Shown here: piece after piece, positions 1 to 61,611 of the stretch
Position numbering within the stretch: position 1 is the stretch's first letter
How the letters are laid out: every line of letters starts with the position of its first letter
NCBI GenBank assembly: GCA_902500205.1
Contig: GCA_902500205.1_4868.1
DNA from: Escherichia coli
Lineage (GTDB): Bacteria > Pseudomonadota > Gammaproteobacteria > Enterobacterales > Enterobacteriaceae
Strand: one strand, 5' to 3'
DNA: 64,000 nt
Position numbers and translations under genes: made by a program
Notes under the pieces: generated by a model
Database searches by the model: none
What the model was told of the DNA's origin: nothing
What the model saw: the letters and a program-made list of their open reading frames with translations, nothing else

Positions 1-2026
1 CCGTGTTGCTGCCGAGAGCGCGAAGCCGGAATACGCCAGCTACATGCCGATCGCTATTTCTGGTGCAGCATCTCTGGCTGCTGACTACGGTAAAACTCCG
101 CTGGTCGCAACTGAATACTACACCAACAAAGACCTGGACAAAAACCTGGGTCTGACCTGGACGCTGAACGTGCGTGCTCTGGAAACTCAATCCAAGTTTG
201 CAGAAACCCTGTTCCCGACCATCACTGTGGACACCAACGACGTCGGCATCACCGTTCGTACCAAAGTTACTACTGTAACTCGTGGTATCCTGAACGCCCT
301 GCTGACCAAAGACGTGGTTGAAGACAACCGTCAGCCGCTGCATAACGCGCTGTCTAACCACAAAGTCCTGCAGGACGATGCTATCCGTATCGTACCTTAC
401 GTGATGGAAACCGGTGAGAACGCGAAGTTCTTCGTATCCGAAGACATCATCGAAAACGAAAACGTTCAGCTGGGTCGTGTGCCGGCGTATCCGACCAACT
501 ACCTGAGCTTCTCTGAACGTCGTCTGAACCTGTTCCAGCTGTCTGCCCATCCGGGTATCGTGCAGGAAGGTTACGATGAAACCGACGAAATCGCACCGGG
601 TGCAGCGCTGGGTAGCCTGCTGCTGTCTGTGCGTAAGCCGACCGAAGAAGCGAAAGATGGCGCGCTGATCAAACTGAACGTACGCGACATGCAGTTCGCT
701 ACCTTCCAGCGTCCTCCTGAAGGTGATGGCCGTGAGCTGGTCCTGCAGTTCCGTCGCACTGTGTTCTCCCTGAACGCCAAGTCTCTGGACTGGAAAGGTG
801 CTGAAATCCCGGCACTGGCCGCTCTGGCACAGAACGATTACACCATTCGTTATTCCATGAACATCAGCATGTCTCTGTTCACCAACGGTCAGTTCTCTGG
901 TCGTGTTGACGTGACTGCACCGTCTCTGGAAATCGAAGGTCTGTACGACGCAACTGGTACTGCTGTTGATATCGAAAGCGGCACCGGTAAAGTGATCATC
1001 GACAACCTGAAACTGGAGCTGCTGGGCTGGCGCTTCGACGGTACTCGTACCAACGAGAACCGGAGAACCCAGGGCCTTCTGCTCGACCCGATTTGGGAAC
1101 AAGAGAACTACAAACTGCAGTACGGTTCTCCGATCATGACCAAATCTCCGGTTGGCGTTGAATACGACGACACCGAACGTCTGGACGACCTCGTTTCTGC
1201 GGTTAACATCCGTAACGAAATGCTGGCTATCACTCAGACTCTGTCTTACACCGAAGCGGTTAAGAACGCAGCTGCGTCCATGATCACTCCGTGGGACAAA
1301 CCTGCTATCCGCGGCCTGGGCCGTCACTGGGTTGCTCCGTGGTACAGCGAAAGCGACTACGAAGTGGACAAAGTGATCCAGTCTCTGGATACCAAAGATG
1401 CGCTCATCAACGCCCGTCAGGGTCTGGTACAGCGTATCGGTGACCAGGTAACTCGTGCTATCCAGGACTCTCGCTTCATGCCGGCTCTGCGCCTGCTGAC
1501 TGCGGACCCGAACGCACTGCCGAAAGTTGTTATCGCAACTGACGAACCGACTGCTGCAATGCTGCTGCTGGTTCAGGGTGACCAGCGTCTGCTGGGCGAT
1601 CGCTACGAGTACGAAGTTATCACCACCAACGATGACCGCTGGCGTGTGAAGAACGAAGCTGACGGCAGCTGGACTCGCCGCCTGCAGTGGGTTCTGAAAG
1701 TTCCAACCGCTGATGATGGTTCTTACTGTGTTCTGAACTGGGGTAACCACTTCTGGTCTCCGATCATGGTAACCAACATCAACATCCAGCGTAACGGCGC
1801 TACCAGCAAAGAGCTGGCAGTACAGCCTCGTAACGCGCACATCTGCCACTGCCCGATCACTGGTCTGATCTGGATTAAAGGTATCACCAAGTTCGTGGAA
1901 GAGAAACTGGCGTTCAACGTCACTACTACTTCCAACGGTACCGGCGGTACTAATGGCGGTAATGCGGGTGATGTTGGCGGCGGCGCTACCCAGCCAGGTA
2001 CTGGCGGTGAAGGCGCTGGCGGCTAA
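1..2026 (+). CDS. 5'-truncated, highly expressed virion structural protein (major capsid protein candidate; tail sheath not excluded)
   Basis: Frame is open from the window edge through ATG 44 to TAA 2024-2026; strongly host-optimised codons (CTG, CGT, GGT, AAC, GAA) unlike most neighbours; Gly-rich C-terminal tail; strong terminator directly downstream. Family not verifiable without a search. Confidence 0.6.
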   Translation, partial: RVAAESAKPEYASYMPIAISGAASLAADYGKTPLVATEYYTNKDLDKNLGLTWTLNVRALETQSKFAETLFPTITVDTNDVGITVRTKVTTVTRGILNALLTKDVVEDNRQPLHNALSNHKVLQDDAIRIVPYVMETGENAKFFVSEDIIENENVQLGRVPAYPTNYLSFSERRLNLFQLSAHPGIVQEGYDETDEIAPGAALGSLLLSVRKPTEEAKDGALIKLNVRDMQFATFQRPPEGDGRELVLQFRRTVFSLNAKSLDWKGAEIPALAALAQNDYTIRYSMNISMSLFTNGQFSGRVDVTAPSLEIEGLYDATGTAVDIESGTGKVIIDNLKLELLGWRFDGTRTNENRRTQGLLLDPIWEQENYKLQYGSPIMTKSPVGVEYDDTERLDDLVSAVNIRNEMLAITQTLSYTEAVKNAAASMITPWDKPAIRGLGRHWVAPWYSESDYEVDKVIQSLDTKDALINARQGLVQRIGDQVTRAIQDSRFMPALRLLTADPNALPKVVIATDEPTAAMLLLVQGDQRLLGDRYEYEVITTNDDRWRVKNEADGSWTRRLQWVLKVPTADDGSYCVLNWGNHFWSPIMVTNINIQRNGATSKELAVQPRNAHICHCPITGLIWIKGITKFVEEKLAFNVTTTSNGTGGTNGGNAGDVGGGATQPGTGGEGAGG

Positions 2027-2056: not shown

Positions 2057-2096
2057 AGCTTACTCCCTTCGGGGAGTAAGCTTTTTCTTTTTTTCT
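2057..2096 (+). terminator. Intrinsic terminator (11-bp stem, TTCG loop, T-tract)
   Basis: 'agcttactccc-ttcg-gggagtaagct' followed by 'ttttctttttttc'. Confidence 0.85.
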
Positions 2097-22149: not shown

Positions 22150-22171
22150 GGATAGATGTTATCTTAGGGAG
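22150..22171 (+). promoter_or_regulatory. Conserved 22-bp promoter-like motif, copy 3
   Basis: 'ggatagatgttatcttagggag' abutting the terminator; 95 nt upstream of ATG 22267; leader holds two hairpins. Confidence 0.55.
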
Positions 22172-30427: not shown

Positions 30428-30449
30428 AGATAGATGTTATTTTACTGAA
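30428..30449 (+). promoter_or_regulatory. Conserved 22-bp promoter-like motif, copy 5
   Basis: 'agatagatgttattttactgaa'; 27 nt upstream of ATG 30477. Confidence 0.5.
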
Positions 30450-39166: not shown

Positions 39167-39188
39167 AGATAGATGTTATCTCAGTGAA
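39167..39188 (+). promoter_or_regulatory. Conserved 22-bp promoter-like motif, copy 6
   Basis: 'agatagatgttatctcagtgaa'; 56 nt upstream of ATG 39245; leader hairpin 'ctctga...tcagag'. Confidence 0.55.
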
Positions 39189-44968: not shown

Positions 44969-45000
44969 AAGGGAGCTTCGGCTCCCCTTCTTTTTTTGTT
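44969..45000 (+). terminator. Intrinsic terminator (TTCG loop)
   Basis: 'gggagc-ttcg-gctccc' followed by 'cttctttttttg' and more T-rich sequence. Confidence 0.8.
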
Positions 45001-45117
45001 TCCTTTTCTTTTTTGTTTGCTCTTGTTCGGATTCTGGTACGCTCTACGCTTTTAATATGCTGGCAGGAGGTCTAAAAATCTTACGACCTCAATAATCCCT
45101 TAACTCGAGTTAACGCG

Positions 45118-45915
45118 ATGTCTTTTACTTCAAAACAGAATCTGCTAAAACTCATCAACGAAGAGAATAAGATAAGCCCACCGCTTACCTTTGACGATGT
45201 TGATATCGGACTGCCGGAGGTTGTGTCAGTAGACGGTCGTGATTCGGAGGTAGTCCTTACCTCGAAGATGCGCGGTGATGAAGGTACGCAAGTGATTGTG
45301 GACTACCATCGTCGTCCATTAGAGGACTACCTTAAAGGCGATGTTGCCTTTGGAGACGAGGACGTGCAAACCACGCACGACTTACTCGCGGCGATTAACG
45401 AGCGTTTTAATCTGTCTATCTTACCTGAGGATATCGAAGATAACCCCATTGATGGACAGACGCACACAGTCGTTGCTGTTGAAACTTCCCACGAGTGGCG
45501 AAGTCAAGCGGTCATCGAGCTGAAACCTGCTACACCTCTGGCAGAAGTAATAACCAATACAGAGTTGAGCGGTCTTCTGTACCCGGATCACCAGGACATC
45601 CAGTTGGGTCAGGCGTATATCTATTCGCGCGACATCGATTGTAGCCACATCTCTCGTTTCCTGAGCCTCTTAGCGGTCGGTATCGAAGTAGATGACACGG
45701 CGTTAGCAATCGAACTCAACAAATGTGTTCCTGAGATTTGGGTGGCTGAAGATACCCCATCCCCGTATAACTTGCGTGGTGCTACTGTCGTATTCGACGG
45801 CGTACCTGCAGACTTACCGGGAGCAAATACGGCGTTCGCGAAAGTCGTGTCAGTGCAACTGACCGATAAATGTACGAACTTCCAGGGCACCCTCAACTTA
45901 CACTTTAACAACTAG
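45118..45915 (+). CDS. Fibre-like paralog 1 (virion appendage family; function inferred)
   Basis: Shares the family N-terminal signature (about 80 aa, '...RNT...YYDR.NL...') and C-terminal '...L.LHFNN'. Confidence 0.8.
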   Translation: MSFTSKQNLLKLINEENKISPPLTFDDVDIGLPEVVSVDGRDSEVVLTSKMRGDEGTQVIVDYHRRPLEDYLKGDVAFGDEDVQTTHDLLAAINERFNLSILPEDIEDNPIDGQTHTVVAVETSHEWRSQAVIELKPATPLAEVITNTELSGLLYPDHQDIQLGQAYIYSRDIDCSHISRFLSLLAVGIEVDDTALAIELNKCVPEIWVAEDTPSPYNLRGATVVFDGVPADLPGANTAFAKVVSVQLTDKCTNFQGTLNLHFNN

Positions 45916-45925
45916 GAGGGTATAG

Positions 45926-46768
45926 GTGTCTATTTACGATAAGCCCTCGAAAGAGATGTTGTTAGATGCTATTAACCGACAGAACGGATTAACGGCCAAT
46001 CCACTCACATGGGAGCAGGTTGCAACTGGCTTCCCTGAGTCTGTCCAAACGCCTGGCGCTGACCGGAATACGCGTGTGCTCTTATACGGGTTGAACGGCA
46101 AGGGCTACAAAGGCAACGTTACGCTCGAATACGACCGTATCGAAATGGAAATTCTGTTCAGGAACGTAATACCGGTAGTCGTTGCCGACCCGGTAAATAA
46201 ACTCTCTGAGTTGTTGCCGTTTCTGAATGCGAAATACGGCTTGTCTTTAGTTGCCGACGATATCGTTGACCAGTCAGTAAAAGATTTGGGAGAAAGCTGG
46301 TTAATCGATGTGACTATTAAGCCCGGTTGCTTGGCCTGGCAAGGTGGTTTCCGTTTACGCTTTGCGAAGTTCTTCCCGAACTTGGCGGATGTGGTGACGG
46401 ATGTTGACCTCAGCGCAATTATCGCGCCGTTCGTGGTTGCTAGTAAACCACAGGCCGAGTATGTGGCGTATGGTTACGATTGGACTGAACTGCAAAAACA
46501 GTTCACCACCGATTGGGTTTACAACCGTGCAATCACTGCAGCGGATGTTGAGTTGTTGAATGAAGTGGTGCCATTAAAGTTTGCATATGTGACGGGGGCG
46601 AATGCGCAACCTGAACAAATTGCACTCCAAGGTGCACGATTTATGGGGATAACTTCAGTCACACCGAACGATAGTTACAACCCCGATTATCAGCGTGTGG
46701 CGATTATCAAGCTAGCTGCGGACAGCAACTACGCCGGTAATCTCATCCTTCATTATCTCCCGATATAA
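45926..46768 (+). CDS. Fibre-like paralog 2
   Basis: 'aggagg' SD before GTG; 'DRNTRVLLYGLNGKGYKGNVTLEYDRIEM'. Confidence 0.8.
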   Translation: MSIYDKPSKEMLLDAINRQNGLTANPLTWEQVATGFPESVQTPGADRNTRVLLYGLNGKGYKGNVTLEYDRIEMEILFRNVIPVVVADPVNKLSELLPFLNAKYGLSLVADDIVDQSVKDLGESWLIDVTIKPGCLAWQGGFRLRFAKFFPNLADVVTDVDLSAIIAPFVVASKPQAEYVAYGYDWTELQKQFTTDWVYNRAITAADVELLNEVVPLKFAYVTGANAQPEQIALQGARFMGITSVTPNDSYNPDYQRVAIIKLAADSNYAGNLILHYLPI

Positions 46769-46778
46769 GGATTTTGAC

Positions 46779-47624
46779 ATGCCACTTTTAGCCACAGCTG
46801 TAAAGATTATTATCGCGGAGGTTAACGTCGAAAACAATCTCGATTTAAAAGTCGAGGATGTTGTTTTTGGTGTCCCTGCGATTCCAACGTCTGACGAAGA
46901 CTTGGCAAAAGCTAACGGTCACAACGCGATGGTGCGCATTCAGGCATTGGCCACGGCTAATGCTATCGGTGCCACTACCGTCTATTACGATCGTGTTGAC
47001 TTCGCAGACATGTTTACCGATCCGGACGGGATTCAACCTTTACGTGTTCCTGCGCGTCTCGATGCTGTTTACCAGATGCATGACGTGGTCGGGTTAATTA
47101 ACCAGTATTACGGTCTCAGCCTTAAACCTGCAGATGTGGTGAATACCGAAATCGACAGGAAGACATGGCGTGTGGATCTGATTGCCACGCCCACTTCCTT
47201 AGGTTGGATAGGGCAACAACAGGTACAGCTGTTACCAGGCGATGCGTTGCTTCCTGCAAACTTCGAACCGTTAACAGTGATGCCTTACGAGTATCCGTAT
47301 TTCAACATCAAGGTCGGTCAAGGTGCAGTTTATTCGTATCCCTGGCGCTTTGATAATTTCGCGGAGGAATTTCAACGACTAGGTGCTGCGATAACCACAG
47401 AACGTCTGGCACAGATTCTCAAAACGGTCACCGGTGATAACTGGACAACATACCGTAACCCTATCGACTTTAACCTTCGTGAAGCCGTCGTCGTCTATAA
47501 CGGGCGTAACAAAGCGGAATTACCAACCAACCCAGCAGTCGACAACGTGCTGATTGTGGAGCTGTCGTTGTACTGTCTGAATTTTGGCGGGCGTTTGTAT
47601 TTGCATTACAACGACCCTGATTAA
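46779..47624 (+). CDS. Fibre-like paralog 3
   Basis: 'TTVYYDRVDFADMF' and C-terminal 'LYLHYNDPD'. Confidence 0.8.
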   Translation: MPLLATAVKIIIAEVNVENNLDLKVEDVVFGVPAIPTSDEDLAKANGHNAMVRIQALATANAIGATTVYYDRVDFADMFTDPDGIQPLRVPARLDAVYQMHDVVGLINQYYGLSLKPADVVNTEIDRKTWRVDLIATPTSLGWIGQQQVQLLPGDALLPANFEPLTVMPYEYPYFNIKVGQGAVYSYPWRFDNFAEEFQRLGAAITTERLAQILKTVTGDNWTTYRNPIDFNLREAVVVYNGRNKAELPTNPAVDNVLIVELSLYCLNFGGRLYLHYNDPD

Positions 47625-47645
47625 TCCTGAGTAAAGGAAGTAAGA

Positions 47646-48557
47646 ATGAAACCTTTAAACAAAACGTCCGATAAGCTGGTTCTGGATTTTATTAATGAGA
47701 AAAACCCAGACGCAGAACTGGAACTTTCTAAAATAACGCTCGGCACACCGACCCCTATTAGCGATGAAGGTGCTGATCGCAATACCAGCATGACCCTGAC
47801 TGCGAAAAAGAACTCCGGGTACATCGGTACTCAGGACGTGACTTATAATCGCCTGGAAGGCGGTGCGCTGTTCCGTAATGTAACAGCATACCTCGACGTT
47901 AAACTGCCGAAAACCACCACAGACCTGCTGACGACCCTGAACACCCAATACGGATTGAAGCTGACCGAAGACGATATCGTTCCGGCGGCTATTCCGGAAA
48001 ATACCAACCCGCCGCTGACTAACCCGAACGATCCGGACCCAGCACCGGTTGACCATGTCATTACCTTCAAAGAAGACTGCTACGCTTATCTGGGCAGCAT
48101 CCCGGTTAAAATCGGTGCTAAGCCTCAGGTTGGTGAACGTCTGAGTCTGGTGGTAACACAAACCAAGCTCGACGGCCTGGTTTACCCAGATGGTCCAAGC
48201 GAAGCGAAGGGTCAGGGCTACATCTACTCTTACGGTGTAGACTGCACAGCAATCGCAGCATTCCTGAAAGTACAGGCGAAAGGTGTTATCGCTGGCGACT
48301 CTGCATTCCCGGTTGAGCTGAATAAAGTTGTGCCGGAACTGTGGGTTGCATCTGATGAGCCTGCGGATTATAACCTGAAAGGCGCTAACGTGTTGTATGT
48401 TGGTTCTACTGCTGACGATGGCACTGCTTCAGGCGACGAACCTAAGAAACCGGTTGAAGGTGCAAACACTGCTTACAACCAGGTTCTGCTGCTGCAGCTG
48501 GATGACACTCTGTGCACCAACTTCCAGGGCATCATGTACCTGCACTTTAATGCCTAA
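47646..48557 (+). CDS. Fibre-like paralog 4 (codon-optimised, probably the most abundant member)
   Basis: Family motifs plus host-optimised codons (runs of CTG, CCG, GGT). Confidence 0.85.
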   Translation: MKPLNKTSDKLVLDFINEKNPDAELELSKITLGTPTPISDEGADRNTSMTLTAKKNSGYIGTQDVTYNRLEGGALFRNVTAYLDVKLPKTTTDLLTTLNTQYGLKLTEDDIVPAAIPENTNPPLTNPNDPDPAPVDHVITFKEDCYAYLGSIPVKIGAKPQVGERLSLVVTQTKLDGLVYPDGPSEAKGQGYIYSYGVDCTAIAAFLKVQAKGVIAGDSAFPVELNKVVPELWVASDEPADYNLKGANVLYVGSTADDGTASGDEPKKPVEGANTAYNQVLLLQLDDTLCTNFQGIMYLHFNA

Positions 48558-48570
48558 TTAGGCCTCGCTG

Positions 48571-48610
48571 GGAGGAGGAAATCCTCCTCCTGGCTACTCC
48601 TTTCTTTTTT
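48571..48610 (+). terminator. Hairpin with distal T-tract (weak internal terminator)
   Basis: 'ggaggagg-aaat-cctcctcc' then 'tggctactcctttcttttttgg'. Confidence 0.45.
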
Positions 48611-48626
48611 GGCCGAGGAGGCTATT

Positions 48627-49466
48627 ATGGCTTTATATAGTCTGTCTCAGCGACAATATCTGTACGATGCGATTAATGCCGAAAACCCGGATGCTGTTCT
48701 ACCGATGGGTTTAGACAATGCTATCATCGGTACGCCGAAAGCAATCACACCGACAGCAAGCGGTGCCAACACCGAGATTATCATTCGTGGTCGTCAAGGT
48801 CGTGGCTATATCGGTCCTCAGACGTTCCGTTATAAGCGCTTGTCGCTGAACGACTTATTTAAGAACATGACACCTCAGGTAACTGCACCGAATGCCTACG
48901 GTTGGTTGAACGTGGAGTCGAAACGTACTGCGTTTGCGCAGAACCTGAACGGTCGTTATGGATTAAACCTGGTTGCAGACGATATCCCAGAACAATACGT
49001 TTATCTGAACGTAAACAACACGATGCGTATTAACGCTAGCTGTATCCAATACACTGGCAGCATCACCTTTATGTCTATCCGGGGTAAGAATAGCCTCGAA
49101 GACCTCGTGGTAAACGACATCTTGTTGGCTTTGAACCACCCTGCAGCAGCAAGCACTGGTAAGAAATACATGGGCTTCTTGACGTACGGGGAAGACTTTA
49201 CCGATGAAGTGCAGGTTATGGCCTCGTTTAAGAACGGGCGAATGGATGTAGGAAGTAACTTTGATTTGGGTTACACGTCCAATCTGATGGCCACATTGGT
49301 CGCACGTGGGGTACCGTCGTTTGATCCGACGAACTGCACAATTACCCGCTACAAAACGAGTGAGTTGGCGACCGCCAATAAAGCGTACGATAACGTATTG
49401 CTGATTACCGGCATTCAGAACGACCCGAAAGTAATCGGCGAGTGTATGTTGCACTACAACAACTAG
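48627..49466 (+). CDS. Fibre-like paralog 5
   Basis: 'gaggagg' SD before ATG 48627; C-terminal 'CMLHYNN'. Confidence 0.8.
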   Translation: MALYSLSQRQYLYDAINAENPDAVLPMGLDNAIIGTPKAITPTASGANTEIIIRGRQGRGYIGPQTFRYKRLSLNDLFKNMTPQVTAPNAYGWLNVESKRTAFAQNLNGRYGLNLVADDIPEQYVYLNVNNTMRINASCIQYTGSITFMSIRGKNSLEDLVVNDILLALNHPAAASTGKKYMGFLTYGEDFTDEVQVMASFKNGRMDVGSNFDLGYTSNLMATLVARGVPSFDPTNCTITRYKTSELATANKAYDNVLLITGIQNDPKVIGECMLHYNN

Positions 49467-49476
49467 GAATTAGCGA

Positions 49477-50364
49477 ATGGCTATTTATCAACCTTCTAAA
49501 GACGTCCTGTTGGCAGCAGTGAACGCACAGAACTCGCTTGCTGTTAAGATGACTGACATCATCTGGTCCACGCCAAAGGACATCCGTGGTACGGAGAAGG
49601 AAACGCTGACTAACCGTAACACGCAAATTAAAATTACGGCAGATGGGGTAACGGGCTCTACCTGGTCGGGTAAGAAAAATGTCTTCTACAACCGCATGAA
49701 AGTCGAAGACTTGTTAGTGCTGATCGGTGACACGTTGGCGATCGGCCCATCCAACGAAACCTTGTATGCGGCCATTCCTGGACTGAACCAACGTTACGGT
49801 TTTGTTCTGGAAGAAGCTGACCTGCAGGACGCAGATATCGAGTGGAACGGTGATAAGACCGAAGGAACTGTGCGCGTTGTTGCACATCCAGAGTCTATCG
49901 GTTGGGTTGGACAGGCGACATTTAAAGTCGTGAAAGGTGATGAGTCGTTAGTCTCTGCAGTCACCACTAACGTCCTGACCGGTCTGAAATACCCGAACGG
50001 TCAGATGGGTTCCGAAACCGTTACTGCGGTCATTGCAGAGGTTTATTCCTACCCGTACAACTTCACTAAGTACCGAGATGCTCTGCTGGCATACAAGCCG
50101 GGTATTCTGTCTGGACAGCCGTTAACGGATATGGTTAACCTGCTGAAAGATATTACGGGTACTGCATGGGTAGCGACCACTTCCGCTTCCTACGGTTTGG
50201 CGGGCGCGGAGGTTATCAGCGTTGGTCTGAATGACCCTGTTGCAATGCCGACAAACGCGAAGTACAAGTATGCGCTGGTGTTGAAACTGCCTGTTACCTG
50301 TACCACCATCGTCGGAACGTTGTATCTCCAGTTCAACGATCTGGACGATCCAAGCGAGGTATAA
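49477..50364 (+). CDS. Fibre-like paralog 6
   Basis: Family N-terminal motif; C-terminal 'LYLQFNDLDDPSEV'. Confidence 0.8.
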   Translation: MAIYQPSKDVLLAAVNAQNSLAVKMTDIIWSTPKDIRGTEKETLTNRNTQIKITADGVTGSTWSGKKNVFYNRMKVEDLLVLIGDTLAIGPSNETLYAAIPGLNQRYGFVLEEADLQDADIEWNGDKTEGTVRVVAHPESIGWVGQATFKVVKGDESLVSAVTTNVLTGLKYPNGQMGSETVTAVIAEVYSYPYNFTKYRDALLAYKPGILSGQPLTDMVNLLKDITGTAWVATTSASYGLAGAEVISVGLNDPVAMPTNAKYKYALVLKLPVTCTTIVGTLYLQFNDLDDPSEV

Positions 50365-50367
50365 TTG

Positions 50368-51195
50368 ATGATCAACTATGCTAAGCCGTCAAACGAGTTG
50401 GTCTTTGACCTCATTAACCGGGATAACCCAAACCTACCTATTAAAGCGTCGCCGGCAAACTGCTACGTGGAGAAAGTGACACAGGTTCCCGTTAATGCAG
50501 CTTCCAACAACCGCAATACGTCGGCACGCTTGCGCGGTATTCAGGGTTCCGGATTTCGAGACGCAATCACCGTTTATTACGACCGTGTGAACTTAGCGCG
50601 GTTATTGCCGTGGGGTCCTTCTGTCCAGGCGCAGTTCGTCACGTTTGACGCTCCCAACCTCCACTCAGCCTTTTCGGTGCTCTTGGATACTTACGGAGTA
50701 AACTTCTCTGCAATCGATATCTATAACCTCCCACTGGCGGGCCCCAATACCCCAAATTACACCAATACACAGAACATCGTAGCGCTATCGACATCTCCGG
50801 CTTATATCGGTTCTGCGACGTTGCGTTATAACCGTGGTTTACCGGTACTAGACACTTCGGTGAAATCGGATGTCTTGAATGCGATTCAAGAGCCTATCTC
50901 GCCGTCTCTCGGTAAGAAGTGTATTGATTTGTTGACGTACGGTATTGACTTTACCGCGTATAAAAACCTACTGACAGTAGATGCTTCTGGCCTACCGCAG
51001 TGGGCTGGTTTGCGTAAGGTGTTGGATGACCTGGGTATTCCGAACTACGCGGGGCCACTGAACAGTAACACCGTTCAGGATGTGCCGACTTCCACCGCTC
51101 AGTTCGCTAACAAATCGTACGACCGCGTGGTTATCCAAACGGGCATCGATGAGGAAGGCGTGAAAGGCGTGGCGTACTACCACTATAACAGCTAA
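50368..51195 (+). CDS. Fibre-like paralog 7
   Basis: 'NRNTSARLRGIQGSGFRDAITVYYDRVNLARLL'; C-terminal 'AYYHYNS'. Confidence 0.8.
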   Translation: MINYAKPSNELVFDLINRDNPNLPIKASPANCYVEKVTQVPVNAASNNRNTSARLRGIQGSGFRDAITVYYDRVNLARLLPWGPSVQAQFVTFDAPNLHSAFSVLLDTYGVNFSAIDIYNLPLAGPNTPNYTNTQNIVALSTSPAYIGSATLRYNRGLPVLDTSVKSDVLNAIQEPISPSLGKKCIDLLTYGIDFTAYKNLLTVDASGLPQWAGLRKVLDDLGIPNYAGPLNSNTVQDVPTSTAQFANKSYDRVVIQTGIDEEGVKGVAYYHYNS

Positions 51196-51200
51196 GTGTA

Positions 51201-51227
51201 GGGGCTCTTCGGAGCCCCCTCTTTTGG
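51201..51227 (+). terminator. Hairpin with short T-tract (weak internal terminator)
   Basis: 'ggggctc-ttcg-gagcccc' followed by 'ctcttttgg'. Confidence 0.5.
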
Positions 51228-51242
51228 CGATGCGGAGTCCCT

Positions 51243-52655
51243 ATGCTATTTTACTCGAAGGAGTCGGCACTGCTTGTATACGACCAAGTCAATCGGGATA
51301 ACCCTGATTTAGTTGTTAAGCTGACGCCGGCTATCGCTGCTTTAACCGGCGGCCCAACTTCAGTTACGTTAAACCAACGTAACACCAAAGCTGTTTTCAC
51401 CGGGTATCCAGGGACAGGTGTACAAGGTAATGTTACCGTGTACTACGACCGGATTAACCTGGCCACTTTATTTAATTTTGTGCCGACTGTGGCTATCAAA
51501 GATACAGTCTTAACGGTACGAGACGCGCTACCTGCAATAAACGACGCATTGGGGCTTACATTAGTTGCTTCTGATTTGCAGTCACCTGACGCAAGTTTAC
51601 CTAAACCGAGCGCTTCGCCGCAGACGTTGAAATTAAATATCTCAGGTAATTGCCCTGCGTTTACAGGCAGCTTAACGATACGTTATACCGTCCCGAGCGG
51701 TGCAATTTACCCCGATTCTGGACCTGGCCCTAAAACGTTGCTGCAAGGTAACACTATCGCGGGTTATTTCGGAACAACCACAATTGCAGAGTTGTTTACA
51801 CACTCTCAACTTCTTAATGCCACTATATCGGCCGGTGCGTTACCACCGGTACATTCTGGTGCCGAAGGTTGGTACAAGTTCTTTTACCAGGGTAGGGTTA
51901 TTTACCTCCCGATCAGTCCTGTCGCTAGCTCCATCTCCTGGAATACGTTATATACAAACGGACTCGTTTACGGAACAGATGATAATGGTAAATACCCTGC
52001 GGCGACGCCCGTTAACCAGGGACGCATCATTAGCTTTACAGGCGCAGACAACAAAAGGTTTTACTTCCGCGTTCGTCTACCTAGTGCTGGGAAGGACCCA
52101 TACGTCAGCGGCACCCCAACTGCCGCTGAGTTAGCAGGTAGTGAGTTTGAGATGTTCAACTTTCTGTATAATGGAACGTGGGACAAACCGATTAACAGTT
52201 ACTGGACGCTGTTCTGTTTATTGAAAGATACACTGAAGACCAACGTCGCCTATCATCGCATGGCGACGTTGTCTGGAGCCAGTTGGACAAACTTAGGAAA
52301 ATCATCGAGCGCAGGCAACTACTACTGGTTCCCGGTGCTGGAGTTGGTGGATAAATCCACAGTTACCTTGGGTTTAGAAGATATCCATGGTGCGGTAGAT
52401 TACAGTCTCCAACCGTGCAGCGTGTCCGCAGAAAACACGTTTAGTCTCAAGCCGTTGGTGCTCGGTAATCCAGATACTACCGATTTCGAACCGGTAGTTG
52501 TTACTTCAGAAAACAGTTTCGCACTGCATCCGCCTGCTTTAATGCTGCCGAAGACAGTCGATTTCCAACCTATTGCGGCTACCGCTGAAATGTATACGCC
52601 CCCTGACAAGACAACGTTAACGTCTCTTAACGGTGAACTGGACGGCTTTAAGTAG
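51243..52655 (+). CDS. Cassette gene A1: long fibre-like protein
   Basis: Family N-domain, 'YPDSGPGPKTLLQGNTIAGYFG', C-terminal repeats ending 'LNGELDGFK'. Confidence 0.85.
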   Translation: MLFYSKESALLVYDQVNRDNPDLVVKLTPAIAALTGGPTSVTLNQRNTKAVFTGYPGTGVQGNVTVYYDRINLATLFNFVPTVAIKDTVLTVRDALPAINDALGLTLVASDLQSPDASLPKPSASPQTLKLNISGNCPAFTGSLTIRYTVPSGAIYPDSGPGPKTLLQGNTIAGYFGTTTIAELFTHSQLLNATISAGALPPVHSGAEGWYKFFYQGRVIYLPISPVASSISWNTLYTNGLVYGTDDNGKYPAATPVNQGRIISFTGADNKRFYFRVRLPSAGKDPYVSGTPTAAELAGSEFEMFNFLYNGTWDKPINSYWTLFCLLKDTLKTNVAYHRMATLSGASWTNLGKSSSAGNYYWFPVLELVDKSTVTLGLEDIHGAVDYSLQPCSVSAENTFSLKPLVLGNPDTTDFEPVVVTSENSFALHPPALMLPKTVDFQPIAATAEMYTPPDKTTLTSLNGELDGFK

Positions 52656-52666
52656 AGGTATCATCT

Positions 52667-53665
52667 ATGTCTTTTACTTTGCGTTGGAAAAATCCAAACG
52701 TAATCCCTACGGTAGTAAAAATCTACCGTGACGTTAAAGATATCACACCAAGCGCTTTGCCTGAACCGATTGCAACGCTCTCAAATGGCGAGACAGAATG
52801 GCGTGATGCCACCGCCAAACCAGGCGCAATCTATTATTACCTTCTAACGGTAACCGCCAACGGTAAAACAGTGGCATCGTCTAGCCAGAAATACACCATT
52901 GAGATAAAGCGTGGGATTGGCCCAATGACTATTCTAAACGGTAACGACCGTTTAGGGTTTATGGGTGCGGTTCCTTACGACGAACAATGGCTTCCGTCGC
53001 AAATGCCACCTGCATTTTTGGCGATGTTCCCTAATCTATTAACCGATCGTGTGGCGTTGTATAAATTTACCCGAAACGGGAAAATCTATTACATGCTATC
53101 TAATACGTCGCAGTTCCCGAATACGCCTGTGGACTGGGCTTCCCTCTATCAAGCCGGTTTAGTCTATGGTACAGGCGATGCTGGCCCAGAGAACGGCCAT
53201 GGAACGCTACCAGACACTCCACAAGACGCTAAGATAGTCCACAAAGGGGATACGTACATTATGCGGCTTCCTCGCGGCCTGACGATGTCTAGCGAGCCTC
53301 CTGCGTATCCTTTCGTAGCTGACTATAATGGGAAAACCCATGATGAAATCGCTTCTCTAACCAACCCGTGTGAGTATAACGATTTACTTTACACGATGGT
53401 TAACGAGGTGCCGTGGAAACAGCGTTGGGCTAACTGGGCAACGAACAGTTATACTTTTCTGGGGCAGGGTACTTTGGGAACCTTGGCAGCGTATTTCGGC
53501 GGTGGTGTTCTCTGTATGGAACACGACACCGCGGAAGACCGTGTGCTCCATCGTGGTATCTTTAACAATGCCGGTGGAACACCCGTATCAGCGATTCAGC
53601 GTATAAACTATTTATCACCCACCACGAAAGGGCGTTACTACCCTATCTTTGAACTGGTCGAGTAA
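52667..53665 (+). CDS. Cassette gene B1: fibronectin-III-like N-terminus plus shared C-domain
   Basis: Paralog of 56121-57107 ('...FTLRWKNPN...IYRD...NGETEW...YYY...'). Confidence 0.85.
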   Translation: MSFTLRWKNPNVIPTVVKIYRDVKDITPSALPEPIATLSNGETEWRDATAKPGAIYYYLLTVTANGKTVASSSQKYTIEIKRGIGPMTILNGNDRLGFMGAVPYDEQWLPSQMPPAFLAMFPNLLTDRVALYKFTRNGKIYYMLSNTSQFPNTPVDWASLYQAGLVYGTGDAGPENGHGTLPDTPQDAKIVHKGDTYIMRLPRGLTMSSEPPAYPFVADYNGKTHDEIASLTNPCEYNDLLYTMVNEVPWKQRWANWATNSYTFLGQGTLGTLAAYFGGGVLCMEHDTAEDRVLHRGIFNNAGGTPVSAIQRINYLSPTTKGRYYPIFELVE

Positions 53666-53674: not shown

Positions 53675-54598
53675 ATGACTATACGGTTAAGCTGGCCGTC
53701 CCAAGCCAGCAAAGGTCTTACCGCGATTGAAATCTACCGCAAGGAAGGTTGGAACGCAACAATCGACGTTTACAATCCAGGCACACCCCACGCAACTTTA
53801 TCAGGCAACGCGGTAGAGTTCGTAGATAATATCGATACCCTGACGAAGAATACAACCTATCGTTATTGGGTAGCTGCTGTGAAGGACAGTGAACGACTTA
53901 TCGGCAATCCGATTACGCAAGGATTCTATCCGGACACCGGGCCGGGTCCGCAAACAATCCTGCGCGGTGACTGGGCTTCAGGTTATTTCGGTACAGTACC
54001 GAATACAGAGTTCTTTAATACTGCCGAGTTAAAACTCATGTTAACTGCGCAGCAGGGAAACATGTTTGTCTACGACCCTCAGGAATGGCACAAGTTTATT
54101 TTCCGTGGGAGAATTGTCTTCTTCCCAGCGACGATGCATTCGAAAACCAACTCGGTACAAATGGCGTATCAGTACGGTATGATGTACGGGACCGATGATG
54201 TCGGAAGTATTGTTCCGCAGGGAGCCACGGCGACTAAACAAGATTGTAAGGTCACGAAGGATGGTCGTACGTACCGTATCCGATTACCTTACGCAGTCCC
54301 GTACGACGCTGTTCTCTCAGGACAGGATTACAACAACGGTGAATGGCGAAACACAATGGGCCGTTTGTATCCTGTCGGTGCAGAGTTCGCAGCCCTCGGT
54401 CTTGGTGCGATTGACTCACTTGCAAGACAAGGCGCGACTGCGCAGCCGAATGAGTCAGGTGCCGCTGTATTAGCTCCTTTGTGGAGCAACAACATATTCG
54501 CTTATGCGTATGGCACCGTGCCTATGGGGATTAGTAACACCGCAGGTGTCGGGAACTCGGCCACGATATTCTTTGCTTTCGAATTAGTCTTACCGTAA
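53675..54598 (+). CDS. Cassette gene C1: FN3-like N-terminus plus GPGP domain
   Basis: Paralog of 57110-58009 ('YPDTGPGPQTILRGDWASGYFGTV'). Confidence 0.85.
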   Translation: MTIRLSWPSQASKGLTAIEIYRKEGWNATIDVYNPGTPHATLSGNAVEFVDNIDTLTKNTTYRYWVAAVKDSERLIGNPITQGFYPDTGPGPQTILRGDWASGYFGTVPNTEFFNTAELKLMLTAQQGNMFVYDPQEWHKFIFRGRIVFFPATMHSKTNSVQMAYQYGMMYGTDDVGSIVPQGATATKQDCKVTKDGRTYRIRLPYAVPYDAVLSGQDYNNGEWRNTMGRLYPVGAEFAALGLGAIDSLARQGATAQPNESGAAVLAPLWSNNIFAYAYGTVPMGISNTAGVGNSATIFFAFELVLP

Positions 54599-56120: not shown

Positions 56121-57107
56121 ATGGCTTTTACAATTCGTTGGACGAACAATAACCCTGGGGCTTCGACCGTGAAGCTGTACCGCGACACCAAACCTCTGGT
56201 GCGTACGGCATTACCTGAACCTCTGGCAACGTTCACTAACGGGGAAACTGAGTATACTGACCGAACAGCGATACTGGGGACAACGTATTACTACATGACC
56301 ACTGTGACAGTGGGAAGCCGAACACTGTTCAGTCCGCAGAAATCAATTCTGATTCAGAACCGTCGCGGTATCGGCATCGTGACTCCACAGTACGGTGATG
56401 ACCGCTTTGCGTATTACGGGTATGTGGCGTACGGTGAATTGCCTAGCGCGGCTGATTATCCGCCAGGGTTTGTGGCCATTTCTGGATATGACCCAACTGT
56501 TAAGCCGGGCTTGATTAAGTTCCAGCTAGACGGTAAAATTCTGTATCTGTTTAGTGGTCTTCGTGTGAACGGCAACACGCTGTATAGCCGTGATGCGATT
56601 TATAACGCGGGTTTGCTGTACGGTGTGGAGGGACCTGGTCCGGAAGGCGGTCATGGTGATTTACCTGACGTTGACCAGGCTGGGGAGTTTACGTGGTTGG
56701 GTGACCGCTATCGGATGCGCCTGCTGCGCGGGTTAACGCTCGACAGTGAAAGCCCGGTCATGACACTCGACGCACAGTGGAACGGTAAACTCCATGACGC
56801 GTCACCGTATACTGCCGATAGCGAATACAACCGACTCATCTATGGGATAAGTAGCTGGTTCCCAGAAAAGAAAAAAGTGATGTCCCTGATAAAGTGGTCG
56901 AACACCAGCATATTCGGAAGTGGATCGCTGGTGGCAGGCCGTGGGGCGCATTGTCAGGAGTTTGACCCAGACAGTAAGTTGGGGCTGACGCGCGGATGGG
57001 CGGCGGCGGATTCCACTGATACCGTGGATAACCTCCAGCGTATACAACATGTCCCTGCGACCGTGGGCGGTATTTGGATTCCAGTAATCGAGCTTATCGA
57101 GGATTAA
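56121..57107 (+). CDS. Cassette gene B2
   Basis: Paralog of B1. Confidence 0.85.
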   Translation: MAFTIRWTNNNPGASTVKLYRDTKPLVRTALPEPLATFTNGETEYTDRTAILGTTYYYMTTVTVGSRTLFSPQKSILIQNRRGIGIVTPQYGDDRFAYYGYVAYGELPSAADYPPGFVAISGYDPTVKPGLIKFQLDGKILYLFSGLRVNGNTLYSRDAIYNAGLLYGVEGPGPEGGHGDLPDVDQAGEFTWLGDRYRMRLLRGLTLDSESPVMTLDAQWNGKLHDASPYTADSEYNRLIYGISSWFPEKKKVMSLIKWSNTSIFGSGSLVAGRGAHCQEFDPDSKLGLTRGWAAADSTDTVDNLQRIQHVPATVGGIWIPVIELIED

Positions 57108-59433: not shown

Positions 59434-61611
59434 ATGTCCTACACTCCTGATTTAGTGGCGACCGTGATTCGGTCGCTCAACCGTAAAAACGCGGTCGCCA
59501 GAGCAGTAGACCCCGCTAACGTACGCCTGGTGTCCGTGGCGCATCGTGACGAAAAAACCCTAGACGTCACACTGACAGGGGGTCCGGGGTATTCTAGTTA
59601 CGGTCAAATTACGGCCCAGGTCACGAAGCAAAATATTGCTGATTATTTCGCTAAGGTTAAGTTGGATGCCATTCCCACTTGTGCGTCCATCCACGAACTG
59701 TTGCCACATTTAGACACTCTACTAGGGATTACCTTTTTAACCGACGACTTTGAAGACCTGCCCATCACTTGGACAAACAATGCTGCGCGCATCACGTTCC
59801 AGGCGAAACAGACAAGTCTTATCTGGTACGGCAGCCAAACGCTAGATGTGATAAACGGTGACGTGGATATCAACACTGTCTACACTGTTACCAATATCAT
59901 TTTCACGCTAAAGGCTGCGAATAAACAGCAGTGGATTAACTTCTACTCTAATGCAGCCAAACGGATCGTGGATCTTGATAAAGTCGATGTCAGCGCCCCG
60001 ATGTCCCCGGAGGATATAGGCCAAACCTCTGCGTATAACAGCGTCGTAGCTTTGACCGCTAGACCGGGGAGCGGGATGTTTGGAACGAAGTATGTGTTCT
60101 TCTCACGTAACAAACTCGAGACATATGCAGGCAAAACCACATACGTCCCGGACGATTTCACCGGTAGCCTGCATGATGCTCTGGCCATCGAGACACTCGG
60201 CATTCGGAGTGTTTTTGATGTAAACGAAATTGCTCCTGTAGAGAACCTGACAGGCGAGTGGCCGAGACAAGTGCAATTGGCACCCGTAGAGGGTTCGTAC
60301 AAAGTCATGGGCAGCGCCACGTTGAATGTGGCACGCTATCAAGATAACGAGCAAACCCTTAACCTGAACTACACAACTACGTCGCAACTTTCGGACAGCT
60401 ACTGGGCCACAACGTTGATCAACCATGCGGCCTGCGGGCGTTTGTTTGTTAACGTGACCGTAGATGCGGGGGCTTTCGTTTATCGCGACAGCAACCTGAA
60501 ACCGACGTTCGTTATCGACGAATTGCCGCAAATTGGCGAGGTGGTTTGGAACTTCGTTAACCGGGGAACCATTCTTGGTCGTGGTGGTTCGGGTGTGGTC
60601 TACTCTATGCCTGCGAACACATCAGCGGACGGAGCTGACGCAATCCACATTAGCGATACCTTCCGTGGCAAAGTCACCATCGAAAACTACGGCACCATCG
60701 CCGGTGGTGGGGGTGGGGGCGACTACTATGCGTTTAGCACCACCAAGATCGGTGGAGCTGGTGGTGCGCCTCTCGGGCCAGGCGCGGCGGTGCCCAGCGA
60801 CACCAATAACCGTAACGGCTTAGCTGGGTCCCGTGACAAAGGCGGTGCTACCCAGTTAGTCGTCGCGCAATTTACCGGCTACCAGAGTCGCTACTATGGC
60901 GGTCCGGGTGGGGATTGGGGCCAGCCGGGACGTTATACAGCGTTCGAGCAATGGAACACCCCGGCTACCGGCTCGCCGGTCTATGTCTACGGTCGTGAAG
61001 ACGGGATGTCATGGACTCGCCCTGGGATGGCAGGCGAAGCCGTCGGTGGGAATAAAAGTATCGTCAACTGGGTATCCGTCGGAACGGTGAAACCGAATGT
61101 CACCGACGAGTACCAAGAGTTCCTCGACTACCTCGCAGATTTAGATGCCAACCGACTGGCTAGTGCGGATGGGATAGATAAAGTCACCGACCCAACCAAA
61201 CCTGTAGTTGTGGAGTTCTTAGGTACGATTATTTCAGGTACGCTGTTCAAAAAGCAAAACATACCCGGCGGTTTGGTGGGAACACCATACGGCGATGCTG
61301 TAGCCAACTTACCAGCCACCACATTGTTTGGTATCATGGCACACTGTGTATCGGAGTTTGATATTGTGCACGACACTTGGCGTTACAACCGCGCGGTAAT
61401 GTTCACGCTAAAACCCGCACCTACCGGGGCGATTAGCCTCGCTGTGGAACGCAACCGGGTGAAATCGGCTACCAGTAGTGCACCGGTGGAGAAGTTCTAC
61501 GTCGATCGCTTCGTGTATTACGATGCGTATCTCGGTAAAATGATGGAATGTAATCCGTATACCAAATCTGCCCCTAAACCGTGGGTGCGGCCAACGATAC
61601 CGTTATCGTAA
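59434..61611 (+). CDS. Large fibre-like protein (725 aa) with Gly-rich segment
   Basis: Family-like N-terminus; 'GGGGGGDYYAFSTTKIGGAGGAPLGPGAAVPS'; C-terminal 'NPYTKSAPKPWVRPTIPLS' echoes the previous gene. Confidence 0.85.
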   Translation: MSYTPDLVATVIRSLNRKNAVARAVDPANVRLVSVAHRDEKTLDVTLTGGPGYSSYGQITAQVTKQNIADYFAKVKLDAIPTCASIHELLPHLDTLLGITFLTDDFEDLPITWTNNAARITFQAKQTSLIWYGSQTLDVINGDVDINTVYTVTNIIFTLKAANKQQWINFYSNAAKRIVDLDKVDVSAPMSPEDIGQTSAYNSVVALTARPGSGMFGTKYVFFSRNKLETYAGKTTYVPDDFTGSLHDALAIETLGIRSVFDVNEIAPVENLTGEWPRQVQLAPVEGSYKVMGSATLNVARYQDNEQTLNLNYTTTSQLSDSYWATTLINHAACGRLFVNVTVDAGAFVYRDSNLKPTFVIDELPQIGEVVWNFVNRGTILGRGGSGVVYSMPANTSADGADAIHISDTFRGKVTIENYGTIAGGGGGGDYYAFSTTKIGGAGGAPLGPGAAVPSDTNNRNGLAGSRDKGGATQLVVAQFTGYQSRYYGGPGGDWGQPGRYTAFEQWNTPATGSPVYVYGREDGMSWTRPGMAGEAVGGNKSIVNWVSVGTVKPNVTDEYQEFLDYLADLDANRLASADGIDKVTDPTKPVVVEFLGTIISGTLFKKQNIPGGLVGTPYGDAVANLPATTLFGIMAHCVSEFDIVHDTWRYNRAVMFTLKPAPTGAISLAVERNRVKSATSSAPVEKFYVDRFVYYDAYLGKMMECNPYTKSAPKPWVRPTIPLS

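Follow-up and report, generated by a model that had tools for sequence, protein, structure and literature searches.

Codon adaptation marks the capsid gene and the most abundant member of a tandem DUF7941 array in an SPN3US-type jumbo phage

Two genes stand apart by codon usage in the window, the whole 64,000-nt stretch of DNA analysed here: the major capsid protein gene, gp75, and gp141, the fourth gene in a tandem array of DUF7941 paralogs. The bias of gp141 is independent of GC3 and matches published virion abundance, and both the bias and a hairpin behind the gene are conserved. We consider it very probable that the whole pattern is explained by translational selection on high-copy virion genes, with gp141 as a bulk subunit and as the end of a hairpin-closed gp138–gp141 unit. 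Earlier publications already report how abundant gp141 is and establish the general principle, and the finding is correct but ordinary, with no new biology.

The window is 98–99% identical to the Salmonella jumbo phage SPN3US and its close relatives and comes from a jumbo phage of the SPN3US type (Seoulvirus) with Salmonella and E. coli as hosts. Its array opens SPN3US "paralog family B" (gp138–gp154), belongs to a 17- to 20-member DUF7941 paralog family, and is syntenic one-to-one with four other genera. Matches to PF25613 are full-length in seven of the eight array genes (E 1e-68 to 1e-87) and restricted to the N-terminal 150 aa in gp145. The ORF at the fourth position is SPN3US_0141; 296 of its 303 residues are identical to SPN3US gp141, its predicted mass of 32.6 kDa equals the published value, and residues 1–303 align to profile positions 1–276 of PF25613 (283.9 bits, cut-off 27; E 1.8e-84). 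The genes on which the argument rests are:

1..2026, + strand: gp75, major capsid protein gene, 3' part of 675 codons; annotated as the major head protein in SPN3US
45118..52655, + strand: tandem DUF7941 array of eight genes, gp138–gp145 (Pfam PF25613, alignment, synteny)
47646..48557, + strand: gp141, codon-optimised high-abundance member, fourth in the array (ORF, ATG start, 303 aa, pI 4.5)
49477..50364, + strand: gp143, second paralog in codon adaptation (CAI 0.512, z 4.4) and in virion abundance (3.70)

The codon adaptation index (CAI) was calculated against 31 E. coli K-12 ribosomal-protein, rpoA, tufA, and fusA genes (5222 codons; an E. coli, not a Salmonella, reference) and compared with a null in which synonymous codons are resampled from window-wide usage. 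The capsid gene (2–2026) is the strongest outlier in the window (CAI 0.785 vs. null 0.389, z 22.6). Second of 78 window ORFs is gp141 (0.634 vs. null 0.408, z 9.8), where the window mean is 0.396 (sd 0.084) and neighbouring paralogs range from 0.34 to 0.44, with the exception of gp143. Along gp141, CAI climbs from 0.45 to 0.84, and among SPN3US genes gp141 ranks 11 of 264. ENC, with a median of 53.3 over the 57 genes that reach 150 aa, is lowest in the same two genes (33.1 for gp75 and 40.7 for gp141). In its codon counts, gp141 differs from the seven other paralogs pooled (chi2 90.6, df 40, p 8.5e-6); the same test applied to each other paralog gives p of 0.13–0.86, except for gp143 (p 0.013). 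At 0.540, the GC3 of gp141 lies among the values of its neighbours (0.49–0.59), so the bias is not due to GC3. A sequence-only reading of this DNA had held that the truncated gene at 1–2026 and the fourth paralog use host-optimised codons and had named per-gene CAI as a check; both CAI, which separates the two genes from the rest, and ENC bear it out.

The codons driving the gp141 bias are CTG, GTT, ACC/ACT, GAA, and CAG. Leucine is encoded by CTG at 26 of 33 positions, compared with only 10–31% in paralogs 1–3, 5, 7, and 8, and CCG stands at 59% versus 39% in the window; the codon run CTGCTGCTGCAGCTG lies at 48486. The same reading had listed CTG, CCG, CGT, GGT, and AAC for this gene. The first two hold, but gp141 is not set apart by CGT (2/4 Arg), GGT (11/23 Gly), or AAC (12/19 Asn, under the window mean). 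Usage of these three does distinguish the capsid gene, in which CTG encodes 61 of 65 Leu and AAC 37 of 39 Asn. Paralogs 3 and 5 had been described as using TTA, TTG, and AGA freely; this is so for TTA and TTG together (14/29 and 15/26, respectively, vs. 3/33 in gp141) but not for AGA, which has zero uses in the eight array paralogs.

Codon adaptation follows published virion abundance. Published virion mass spectrometry (PMC5694885) places gp75 first among SPN3US virion proteins (1560 copies; spectral count per mass 22.6) and gp141 fifth of 86 (9.39), a value that reflects incorporation, not synthesis. Densitometry gives more than 300 copies of gp141 per virion, a high abundance, and gp143 is of "middle abundance" (3.70) with the other gp138–gp145 members low (0.9–2.8). 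For family B as a whole, published work (Thomas et al. 2016, PMC5105663; Ali et al. 2017, PMC5694885) rates gp141 and gp160 as high, gp143 as middle, and the remaining members as low. The proposal that genes with outlying codon usage encode the most abundant virion proteins agrees with these spectra, which rank gp75 and gp141 top within the window. The further proposal that the fourth paralog is the dominant array product, for which virion proteomics had been suggested as a check, likewise fits the published mass spectrometry.

With CAI computed on 264 SPN3US genes, its correlation with log10 spectral count per mass across the 86 virion proteins is r = 0.63 (p 6.5e-11), and within family B the rank correlation of CAI with abundance is rho = 0.69 (p 7e-4, n = 20). 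The virion genes with the highest CAI are gp75, gp53, gp172 (68 aa; 0.86), gp54, gp255, and gp141, and five of these six fall among the seven most abundant virion proteins. The correspondence is imperfect in that gp160 has a CAI of only 0.51 though it is as abundant as gp141. A model of abundance that combines CAI, SD strength, start-region folding, and terminator presence has an R2 of 0.42, and the share of CAI is under half of the variance. A literature search found no infected-cell proteomics of SPN3US and no transcriptomes of SPN3US-like phages.

The bias persists across genera. In CR5, Phobos, phiEaH2, and pSal-SNUABM-04, position-4 orthologues have a CAI of 0.61–0.69, always the array maximum, and the others have 0.33–0.54. 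Orthologues of gp143 (0.47–0.54) are second among the DUF7941 genes of the array in four of four relatives. Between the window and these four genera, 61–63% of gp141 synonymous sites differ, compared with 56–85%, mostly 71–85%, in neighbour genes. Because the position-4 bias recurs despite near-saturated synonymous sites, it is maintained and not merely inherited. A lower pS of gp141 than of its neighbours is confined to distant comparisons; in the close relatives SPAsTU, pEa8, Huxley, and Caitlin, pS is mixed with no clear reduction in gp141.

We suggest that a demand for hundreds to thousands of copies per virion would impose translational selection on the genes concerned, driving synonymous codons toward those read by abundant enterobacterial tRNAs and acting, presumably, through translation rate or efficiency. 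The capsid gene, at 1560 copies, would be the strongest case. Within the DUF7941 family, gp141 would be the bulk subunit, gp143 intermediate, and the rest minor, and the gradient of codon adaptation would follow this stoichiometry. Classic cases of such codon selection are T7 gene 10 and T4 gene 23. Enrichment of host-preferred codons in phage structural genes is an established pattern (Lucks et al. 2008, PMC2266997). What is shared with known phage translational selection is that genes for the capsid and other high-copy virion components favour host-preferred codons more than the rest of the phage genome does, to a degree that tracks copy number; the difference is that stoichiometry is resolved here inside one tandem paralog family. 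This phage transcribes with its own RNA polymerases yet depends on host ribosomes and tRNAs. The searchable text of PMC5105663 and PMC5694885 holds no link of gp141 abundance to codon usage or to the 3' hairpin. A reading of codons from sequence alone picks the high-copy virion components of a giant phage, even among look-alike paralogs, and per-gene CAI is a cheap way to nominate the bulk subunit in the DUF7941 arrays of many uncharacterised chimallivirus-like genomes.

The probable unit structure in and around the array is outlined by hairpins and by the start of the gene after gp141:

2058..2096, + strand: canonical terminator behind the capsid gene, a stem-loop GCTTACTCCC-TTCG-GGGAGTAAGC then TTTTTCTTTTTTTCT
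44971..44996, + strand: terminator-like hairpin and T-run after gp137, closing the unit upstream of the array, GGGAGCTTCGGCTCCC then CTTCTTTTTT
48567..48610, + strand: conserved stem-loop and T-rich tract, with a 12-bp stem (48567–48578/48583–48594), loop AAAT, and T-run TTTCTTTTTT at 48601–48610
48615..48629, + strand: gp142 SD GAGGAGG and ATG (48627), SD duplex -11.8 kcal/mol
51201..51227, + strand: hairpin between gp144 and gp145, GGGGCTCTTCGGAGCCCC, whose T-tract is poor

In SPN3US the capsid-gene terminator has a folding energy of -20.9 kcal/mol and a T-run without a spacer, the hairpin after gp137 is also present, and that between gp144 and gp145 failed a stricter T-run filter in the SPN3US scan. 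An Rfam search for known RNA elements gave no match, and a tRNA scan found no tRNA.

The stem-loop behind gp141 begins 10 nt past its stop codon. It had been called a weak terminator, a description contradicted by its core stem of -23.5 kcal/mol and by covariation. The extended fold (-24.7 kcal/mol) is in the top five of 79 such SPN3US elements, and a 72-nt fold at the site has -33.3 kcal/mol (z -3.4 vs. shuffles). Across 11 phages of five genera, pairing in the stem is retained in 132 of 132 cells (100%), compared with 55–70% in slid controls. Two pairs have changed on both sides in a compensatory manner and four on one side, with a covariation score reached by 3 of 500 shuffles, and the RNAalifold consensus of the 11 phages gives the same helix. 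In CR5 this position is taken by another hairpin. The T-run starts 6 nt after the core stem, and a consensus terminator scan did not flag the element; the run adjoins the stem only if a 3-bp lower helix, AGG/CCU, forms. Lower helices that are comparable but different in sequence occur in most relatives.

The element is probably the 3' end or an attenuation point of the gp138–gp141 transcript, by analogy with related phages. Stem-loop terminators of phiKZ and 201phi2-1 are 3' ends mapped by ONT-cappable-seq, and these hairpins are often elongated and often conserved in position relative to homologous genes (PMC11512511, PMC10914365). What those share with the gp141 element is a GC-rich hairpin and a U-rich tract behind it where a transcription unit ends, with many per genome; the difference is that 3' ends were mapped there, whereas here the evidence is sequence and the U-tract is offset by 6 nt from the core stem. 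In the proposed mechanism, gp141 would be the last gene of a four-gene unit, gp138–gp141, and the stem-loop and U-rich tract that close it would most likely end or attenuate transcription by the phage's own RNA polymerase. The element could in addition shield the gp141 message at its 3' end. In virions, the downstream gp142–gp144 are at 2.1–3.7 compared with 1.2–1.3 for the upstream gp138–gp140, such that attenuation is not visible at the protein level. Because the downstream products exceed the upstream ones, the hairpin alone cannot explain the peak at gp141.

A somewhat unlikely alternative is that the stem-loop is not chiefly a transcription terminator but acts at the RNA level, by stabilising a processed gp141 message at its 3' end or by tuning the translation of gp142. 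The arms of the stem carry an SD-like GGAGGAGG and an anti-SD-like CCUCCUCC beside the invariant gp142 SD, and both the arms and GCCGAGGAG of the gp142 initiation region, which is invariant in 11 phages, are conserved beyond what pairing requires. Moreover, gp142 has the strongest SD of the array yet is of low abundance, and in the window the minimum-energy fold at this site pairs this SD with upstream bases. However, the outer helix that would hide the SD appears in the window fold and is missing from the consensus of 11 phages, and we rejected it. Genome-wide, 79 of 264 SPN3US genes precede a hairpin with a T-run, and genes of the highest abundance are often the final one ahead of such an element (gp75, gp54, gp160, gp141, and gp255), a tendency consistent with stabilisation of messages. 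On the other hand, the gp141 element shares its hairpin-plus-T-run anatomy with these gene-end elements and with the terminators mapped in relatives. A stabilising or translational role and termination are not mutually exclusive.

The place of the DUF7941 family in the virion bears on how the abundance of gp141 is read. The fourth paralog had been labelled a fibre protein, and the label is contested. A Pfam search with gp141 returned DUF7941 only, with no fibre or receptor-binding domain, and the SPN3US studies assign family B to the head, from a tailless mutant (PMC5105663, PMC5694885). The phiKZ structure (PDB 9XQD, PMC13250141) and a Goslar preprint (bioRxiv 10.64898/2026.04.21.720040) identify DUF7941 proteins as outer-baseplate filaments. 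In phiKZ, gp127 sits on the outer baseplate, and head-to-tail oligomerisation of gp126 and gp127 was modelled (PMC13250141); for Goslar gp22, such oligomerisation into filaments with attachment to the outer baseplate is reported. Phage phiKZ gp127 and Goslar gp22 and gp23 belong to the same Pfam family as gp141. A profile of the window paralogs matches phiKZ gp127 (E 7.9e-25), and the gp141 structure model (mean pLDDT 65), which is confident for residues 1–160 only, has an N-terminal domain with a fold in common with it (Foldseek match 9xqd_0, E 3.9e-7, TM (target) 0.63); Foldseek returned no other significant PDB match for the model. Like SPN3US, Goslar has one or two dominant paralogs (gp23 with ∼2140 copies, gp22 with ∼580) and many minor ones, some with C-terminal host-recognition domains. 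An outer-baseplate "fibre cloud" is proposed for Goslar and phiKZ, whereas in SPN3US the family is detected in tailless heads.

The last member of the array also bears on this question:

59434..61611, + strand: gp155, DUF7941 module at the N-terminus (PF25613) joined to a tail-fibre adhesin domain of Gp38 type (PF05268)

In gp155, PF25613 matches at aa 11–154 (E 8e-24) and PF05268 (GP38) at aa 362–553 (67.9 bits vs. a cut-off of 25, E 1.5e-18). The protein has poly-glycine motifs and a weak match to the S16 adhesin 6F45_D, its CR5 orthologue has the same architecture, and a terminator directly follows the gene. This fusion matters to the question of whether the family belongs to the head or forms a system of host-recognition fibres, and is more useful than the main result. 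We tentatively raise the possibility, which we hold at less than even, that family B is an external, modular host-recognition filament system of the Goslar kind. In such a system gp141 would be the bulk filament subunit, the minor paralogs would share a DUF7941 N-terminal docking module and carry specialised C-terminal regions, among them the Gp38-type adhesin in gp155, and graded codon adaptation together with the gp141 hairpin would set stoichiometry.

It is unlikely, in our judgement, that gp141 is abundant through self-assembled filaments that co-purify with particles, such that the bias would mark high expression and not necessarily a stoichiometric virion component. Purified Goslar gp22, itself a DUF7941 protein, forms filaments hundreds of nm long, and non-virion assemblies were captured in the same preparations (bioRxiv 10.64898/2026.04.21.720040); co-purification could also reconcile gp141 in tailless SPN3US particles with phiKZ gp127 on the outer baseplate. 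However, in CsCl-purified particles, wild-type as well as tailless, gp141 was high by densitometry and by mass spectrometry (PMC5694885), and co-purifying filaments would leave the inference of high expression standing.

It is highly improbable that gp141 owes its bias to uneven base composition or to a recent horizontal transfer, for example from another phage or a source resembling the host: the capsid gene region is indeed GC-richer (0.54–0.56) than the window (∼0.48), but gp141 matches its neighbours in GC3, several of the codons it favours have A or T in third position (GTT, ACT, GAA, and TCT), and it is a DUF7941 paralog at a fixed syntenic position in five genera whose orthologues all share the bias.

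The rise in virion abundance at gp141 occurs over a short distance: gp140 ends only 21 nt upstream, and gp141 is sevenfold more abundant. Its initiation site is:

47633..47640, + strand: gp141 ribosome-binding site AAAGGAAG, 5 nt before the ATG

Initiation features were considered as a cause of gp141 dominance and rejected, with correlations to abundance of rho 0.06 for SD duplex energy and 0.00 for folding at -25..+25. No promoter was found for gp141; a sigma-70 scan gave 11 sites versus 11.4 expected. Hexamer enrichment in 121 upstream intergenic regions returned only terminator, ribosome-binding-site, and ATAGATATTATCT-type motifs, the last with no copy near gp141. High conservation extends over the final 45 nt of gp140 and the gp141 ribosome-binding site, a signal that is not separable from constraint on the protein (an LHYN C-terminal motif) and on codons. 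SPN3US gp22 and other high-CAI genes of unassigned product have no Pfam or PDB sequence match; gp22, which is not a virion protein, has a CAI of 0.73. The sequence AAAGGAAGTTAGAATGAAA at the gp141 ribosome-binding site hardly varies in 11 of 12 phages, and ribosome-binding sites of this AAGGAA type also precede gp53, gp160, and gp22.

Positions 45000-52000 share 98.3-98.9% identity with the jumbo phages SEGD1, vB_EcoM_EC001, JN03 and SPN3US (genus Seoulvirus; Salmonella and E. coli). Comparison with the SPN3US annotation, whose gene names are used here, identifies the truncated gene at 1-2026 as the one encoding gp75, the major capsid protein, and the ORF at 47646-48557 as SPN3US_0141 (gp141). 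The latter product has 296 of 303 residues identical to SPN3US gp141 and a mass of 32.6 kDa, the published value. gp141 is the fourth paralog of the tandem array gp138-gp145 (45118-52655, + strand), which opens the 17- to 20-member "paralog family B" published for SPN3US. All eight array genes match Pfam DUF7941 (PF25613), over their full length in seven and confined to the N-terminal 150 residues in gp145.

The capsid gene and gp141 are codon-usage outliers. Codon adaptation index (CAI) weights were derived from 31 E. coli K-12 genes (ribosomal-protein genes, rpoA, tufA and fusA; 5222 codons) and applied to 78 non-overlapping ORFs of the window, and compared with a null in which every protein retains its amino acids while synonymous codons are sampled from the usage of the whole window. 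CAI is 0.785 for gp75 and 0.634 for gp141, against a window mean of 0.396 (sd 0.084), and their z scores of 22.6 and 9.8 are the top two of the window. The reference-free measure ENC is likewise lowest in these two (33.1 and 40.7; median 53.3) among 57 genes of at least 150 aa. Per-gene CAI thus sets apart the same two genes for which the sequence-only reading had proposed a host-optimised codon set. Adjacent paralogs have CAIs of 0.34-0.44, and gp143 (49477-50364), the sixth paralog, is alone also raised (0.512; z 4.4). Codon counts of gp141 differ from those of the other paralogs pooled (chi2 90.6, df 40, p 8.5e-6); the same control for each remaining paralog is non-significant save for gp143 (p 0.013). 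A composition effect is ruled out as the cause, since GC3 of gp141 (0.540) lies inside its neighbours' range.

The codon details named in that reading hold in part. CTG supplies 26 of 33 leucines in gp141 versus 10-31% in paralogs 1-3, 5, 7 and 8, and the run CTGCTGCTGCAGCTG lies at 48486, but CGT, GGT and AAC mark the capsid gene and not gp141, in which GTT, ACC/ACT, GAA and CAG are the further drivers. Paralogs 3 and 5 do use TTA and TTG freely (14/29 and 15/26 leucines; 3/33 in gp141), but AGA, also attributed to them, is used in none of the eight paralogs. Along gp141, CAI climbs from ∼0.45 over the opening 75 codons and reaches 0.84 by the 3' end. A 168-aa antisense ORF lies inside the gene (47655-48161, - strand); with stop codons made rare on that strand by the strong codon bias, this ORF is most likely a by-product and not a gene.

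Published abundances follow the codon bias. Mass spectrometry of SPN3US virions quantified 86 proteins, with spectral counts per unit mass of 22.6 for gp75, 9.39 for gp141, 3.70 for gp143 and 0.9-2.8 for gp138-140, gp142, gp144 and gp145; gp141 had the highest sequence coverage (94%) and >300 copies by densitometry (Ali et al. 2017, PMC5694885). Of the virion proteins that the window encodes, the two outliers are therefore the most abundant, and paralog 4 is, as had been proposed, the dominant array product in virions. The third-ranked paralog by CAI also ranks third in abundance. When CAI is calculated for all 264 SPN3US genes, it correlates with log10 abundance across the virion proteins (r = 0.63, p 6.5e-11, n = 86) and with abundance inside family B (rho = 0.69, p 7e-4, n = 20). 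gp141 ranks 11th of 264, and five of the six highest-CAI virion genes (gp75, gp53, gp172, gp54, gp255 and gp141) encode proteins among the seven most abundant; gp172 (68 aa) has a CAI of 0.86 yet low abundance. In a joint abundance model (R2 0.42), CAI is the only useful predictor, and Shine-Dalgarno strength, start-region folding and terminator presence add nothing to it. The observation of codon outliers is confirmed, with a few codon details wrong, and its main interpretation is supported by the checks proposed with it, per-gene CAI and virion proteomics. That structural genes of phages with high-copy products are enriched in host-preferred codons is well established (PMC2266997), and the abundance of gp141 was published; the finding is therefore correct but both of its elements were already known.

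The bias is conserved among relatives. Syntenic arrays with one-to-one orthology are present in Cronobacter phage CR5 and Erwinia phage Phobos (both Derbicusvirus), Erwinia phage phiEaH2 (Erskinevirus) and Salmonella phage pSal-SNUABM-04 (Machinavirus). In each of these phages, CAI within the array peaks at the position-4 orthologue (0.61-0.69 vs 0.33-0.54), and of the DUF7941 genes there the gp143 orthologue comes second. Synonymous sites differ from those of the window at 61-63% in gp141 (Phobos, phiEaH2 and pSal-SNUABM-04) and at 56-85%, mostly 71-85%, in neighbouring genes, near saturation. Each lineage is therefore maintaining the bias of gp141 and has not simply inherited it, which points to selection and away from recent transfer.

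The following features lie downstream of gp141.

48567-48594, + strand: stem-loop GCTGGGAGGAGG-AAAT-CCTCCTCCTGGC, 12-bp stem, -23.5 kcal/mol
48601-48610, + strand: T-run TTTCTTTTTT, after the stem and then a TACTCC spacer
48615-48621, + strand: gp142 Shine-Dalgarno sequence GAGGAGG, with the ATG at 48627

This element had been described as a weak internal terminator (48571-48610). It is real and conserved, but its stability argues against "weak". A consensus scan does not flag it because the T-run is 6 nt off the core stem; a 3-bp lower helix, if formed, would make the T-run adjacent (-24.7 kcal/mol), and this extended fold is in the top five of 79 hairpin-plus-T elements behind SPN3US genes. 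Across 11 phages of five genera, stem pairing is retained in 132 of 132 cells (55-70% in slid controls), with two pairs altered in both partners and four in a single partner, and RNAalifold independently gives the same helix. In most relatives the T-run is abutted by a short lower helix whose sequence varies, and CR5 has a hairpin of other sequence at the equivalent position. Such stem-loops are mapped transcript 3' ends in related chimalliviruses, many very efficient (PMC11512511). The hairpin may attenuate the genes downstream of gp141. Virion levels are nevertheless higher for downstream gp142-144 (2.1-3.7) than for upstream gp138-140 (1.2-1.3), and gp140 ends 21 nt before gp141, so the sevenfold peak needs a factor specific to gp141, which could be the efficiency of its translation, an internal start site or the stability of its message.

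Many gene-end hairpins of SPN3US (genome loci L005-L009; ∼79 genes) share a near-identical stem core, ...TACC(C/T)ACTCCC-TTCG-GGGAGTGGGTA..., and several serve convergent gene pairs both ways (e.g. gp159/gp160/gp161, gp213/gp214 and gp201/gp202). The genes of the abundant gp75, gp54, gp160, gp141 and gp255 are each the last ahead of a hairpin-plus-T element.

A profile built from the paralogs in the window hits phiKZ gp127 (PDB 9XQD; E 7.9e-25), which sits where the "star lobe" of the outer baseplate has its tip (PMC13250141), and for the confident N-terminal half of the AlphaFold gp141 model that chain is the sole PDB match. According to a 2026 preprint on phage Goslar, the most abundant of its unmodelled virion proteins are DUF7941 members (gp23, ∼2140 copies; gp22, ∼580) and gp22, once purified, assembles into long filaments; the preprint proposes a "fibre cloud" anchored to the baseplate that serves host recognition. 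Both agree with the word "fibre" in the sequence-only reading and conflict with the SPN3US literature, which assigns family B to the head on detection in tailless particles. One further gene bears on this question through its fusion of DUF7941 to an adhesin.

59434-61611, + strand: gp155, closing the block; N-terminal DUF7941 module (aa 11-154) and Gp38-type tail-fibre adhesin domain (aa 362-553)

This architecture recurs in the CR5 orthologue. The array may encode an external filament system of modular design, in which gp141 would be the bulk subunit and gp155 a member bearing an adhesin. Existing annotation lists gp155 as hypothetical and as a head protein outside family B. Poly-glycine motifs in its adhesin part (GRGGSG, GGGGGG, GGAGGAPLG and GGPGGDWGQPG) account for a GC bump of 0.557 at 60001-61000. 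DUF7941 is absent by Pfam at E 0.01 from gp146 (52667-53665), gp147 (53675-54598), gp149 (56121-57107) and gp150 (57110-58009), family B members in the SPN3US literature, and gp145, gp148, gp154 and gp83 (12532-13059) have only the N-terminal module of ∼150 aa. The "family" thus has the look of one common docking module joined to diverse C-terminal parts. Directly upstream of the array, phiEaH2 (L012 4546-6363) and pSal-SNUABM-04 (L013 4525-6330) have genes annotated as EPS depolymerase, with fairly high CAI (0.53-0.56) and neither a Pfam match nor a DUF7941 module; the window has no counterpart at this position.

Some non-virion genes also have high CAI (0.52-0.73): SPN3US gp22 (L005 15768-17621), gp252, gp43 and gp29, and window ORFs 5185-6855 and 24713-25369. 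None has a Pfam match, and gp22, the one compared with PDB sequences, has no match there; presumably they encode very highly expressed intracellular proteins. The motif GATAGAT[AG]TTATCT occurs five times, all on the + strand (2108-2121, 2306-2319, 22151-22164, 30429-30442 and 39168-39181), on the coding strand and always intergenic ahead of non-virion genes. Allowing up to two mismatches gives six matches versus 0.37 expected, and ATAGAT, AGATAT and ATATTA are also enriched upstream of genes across the SPN3US genome; the motif is probably a phage-specific early/middle promoter or operator. Two exact copies flank a gap of ∼240 nt (2097-2334) behind the capsid-gene terminator. This gap, unannotated in SPN3US, could be a small gene or small RNA, and contains a 27-codon ORF (ATG at 2163) preceded by AAGGAGA.
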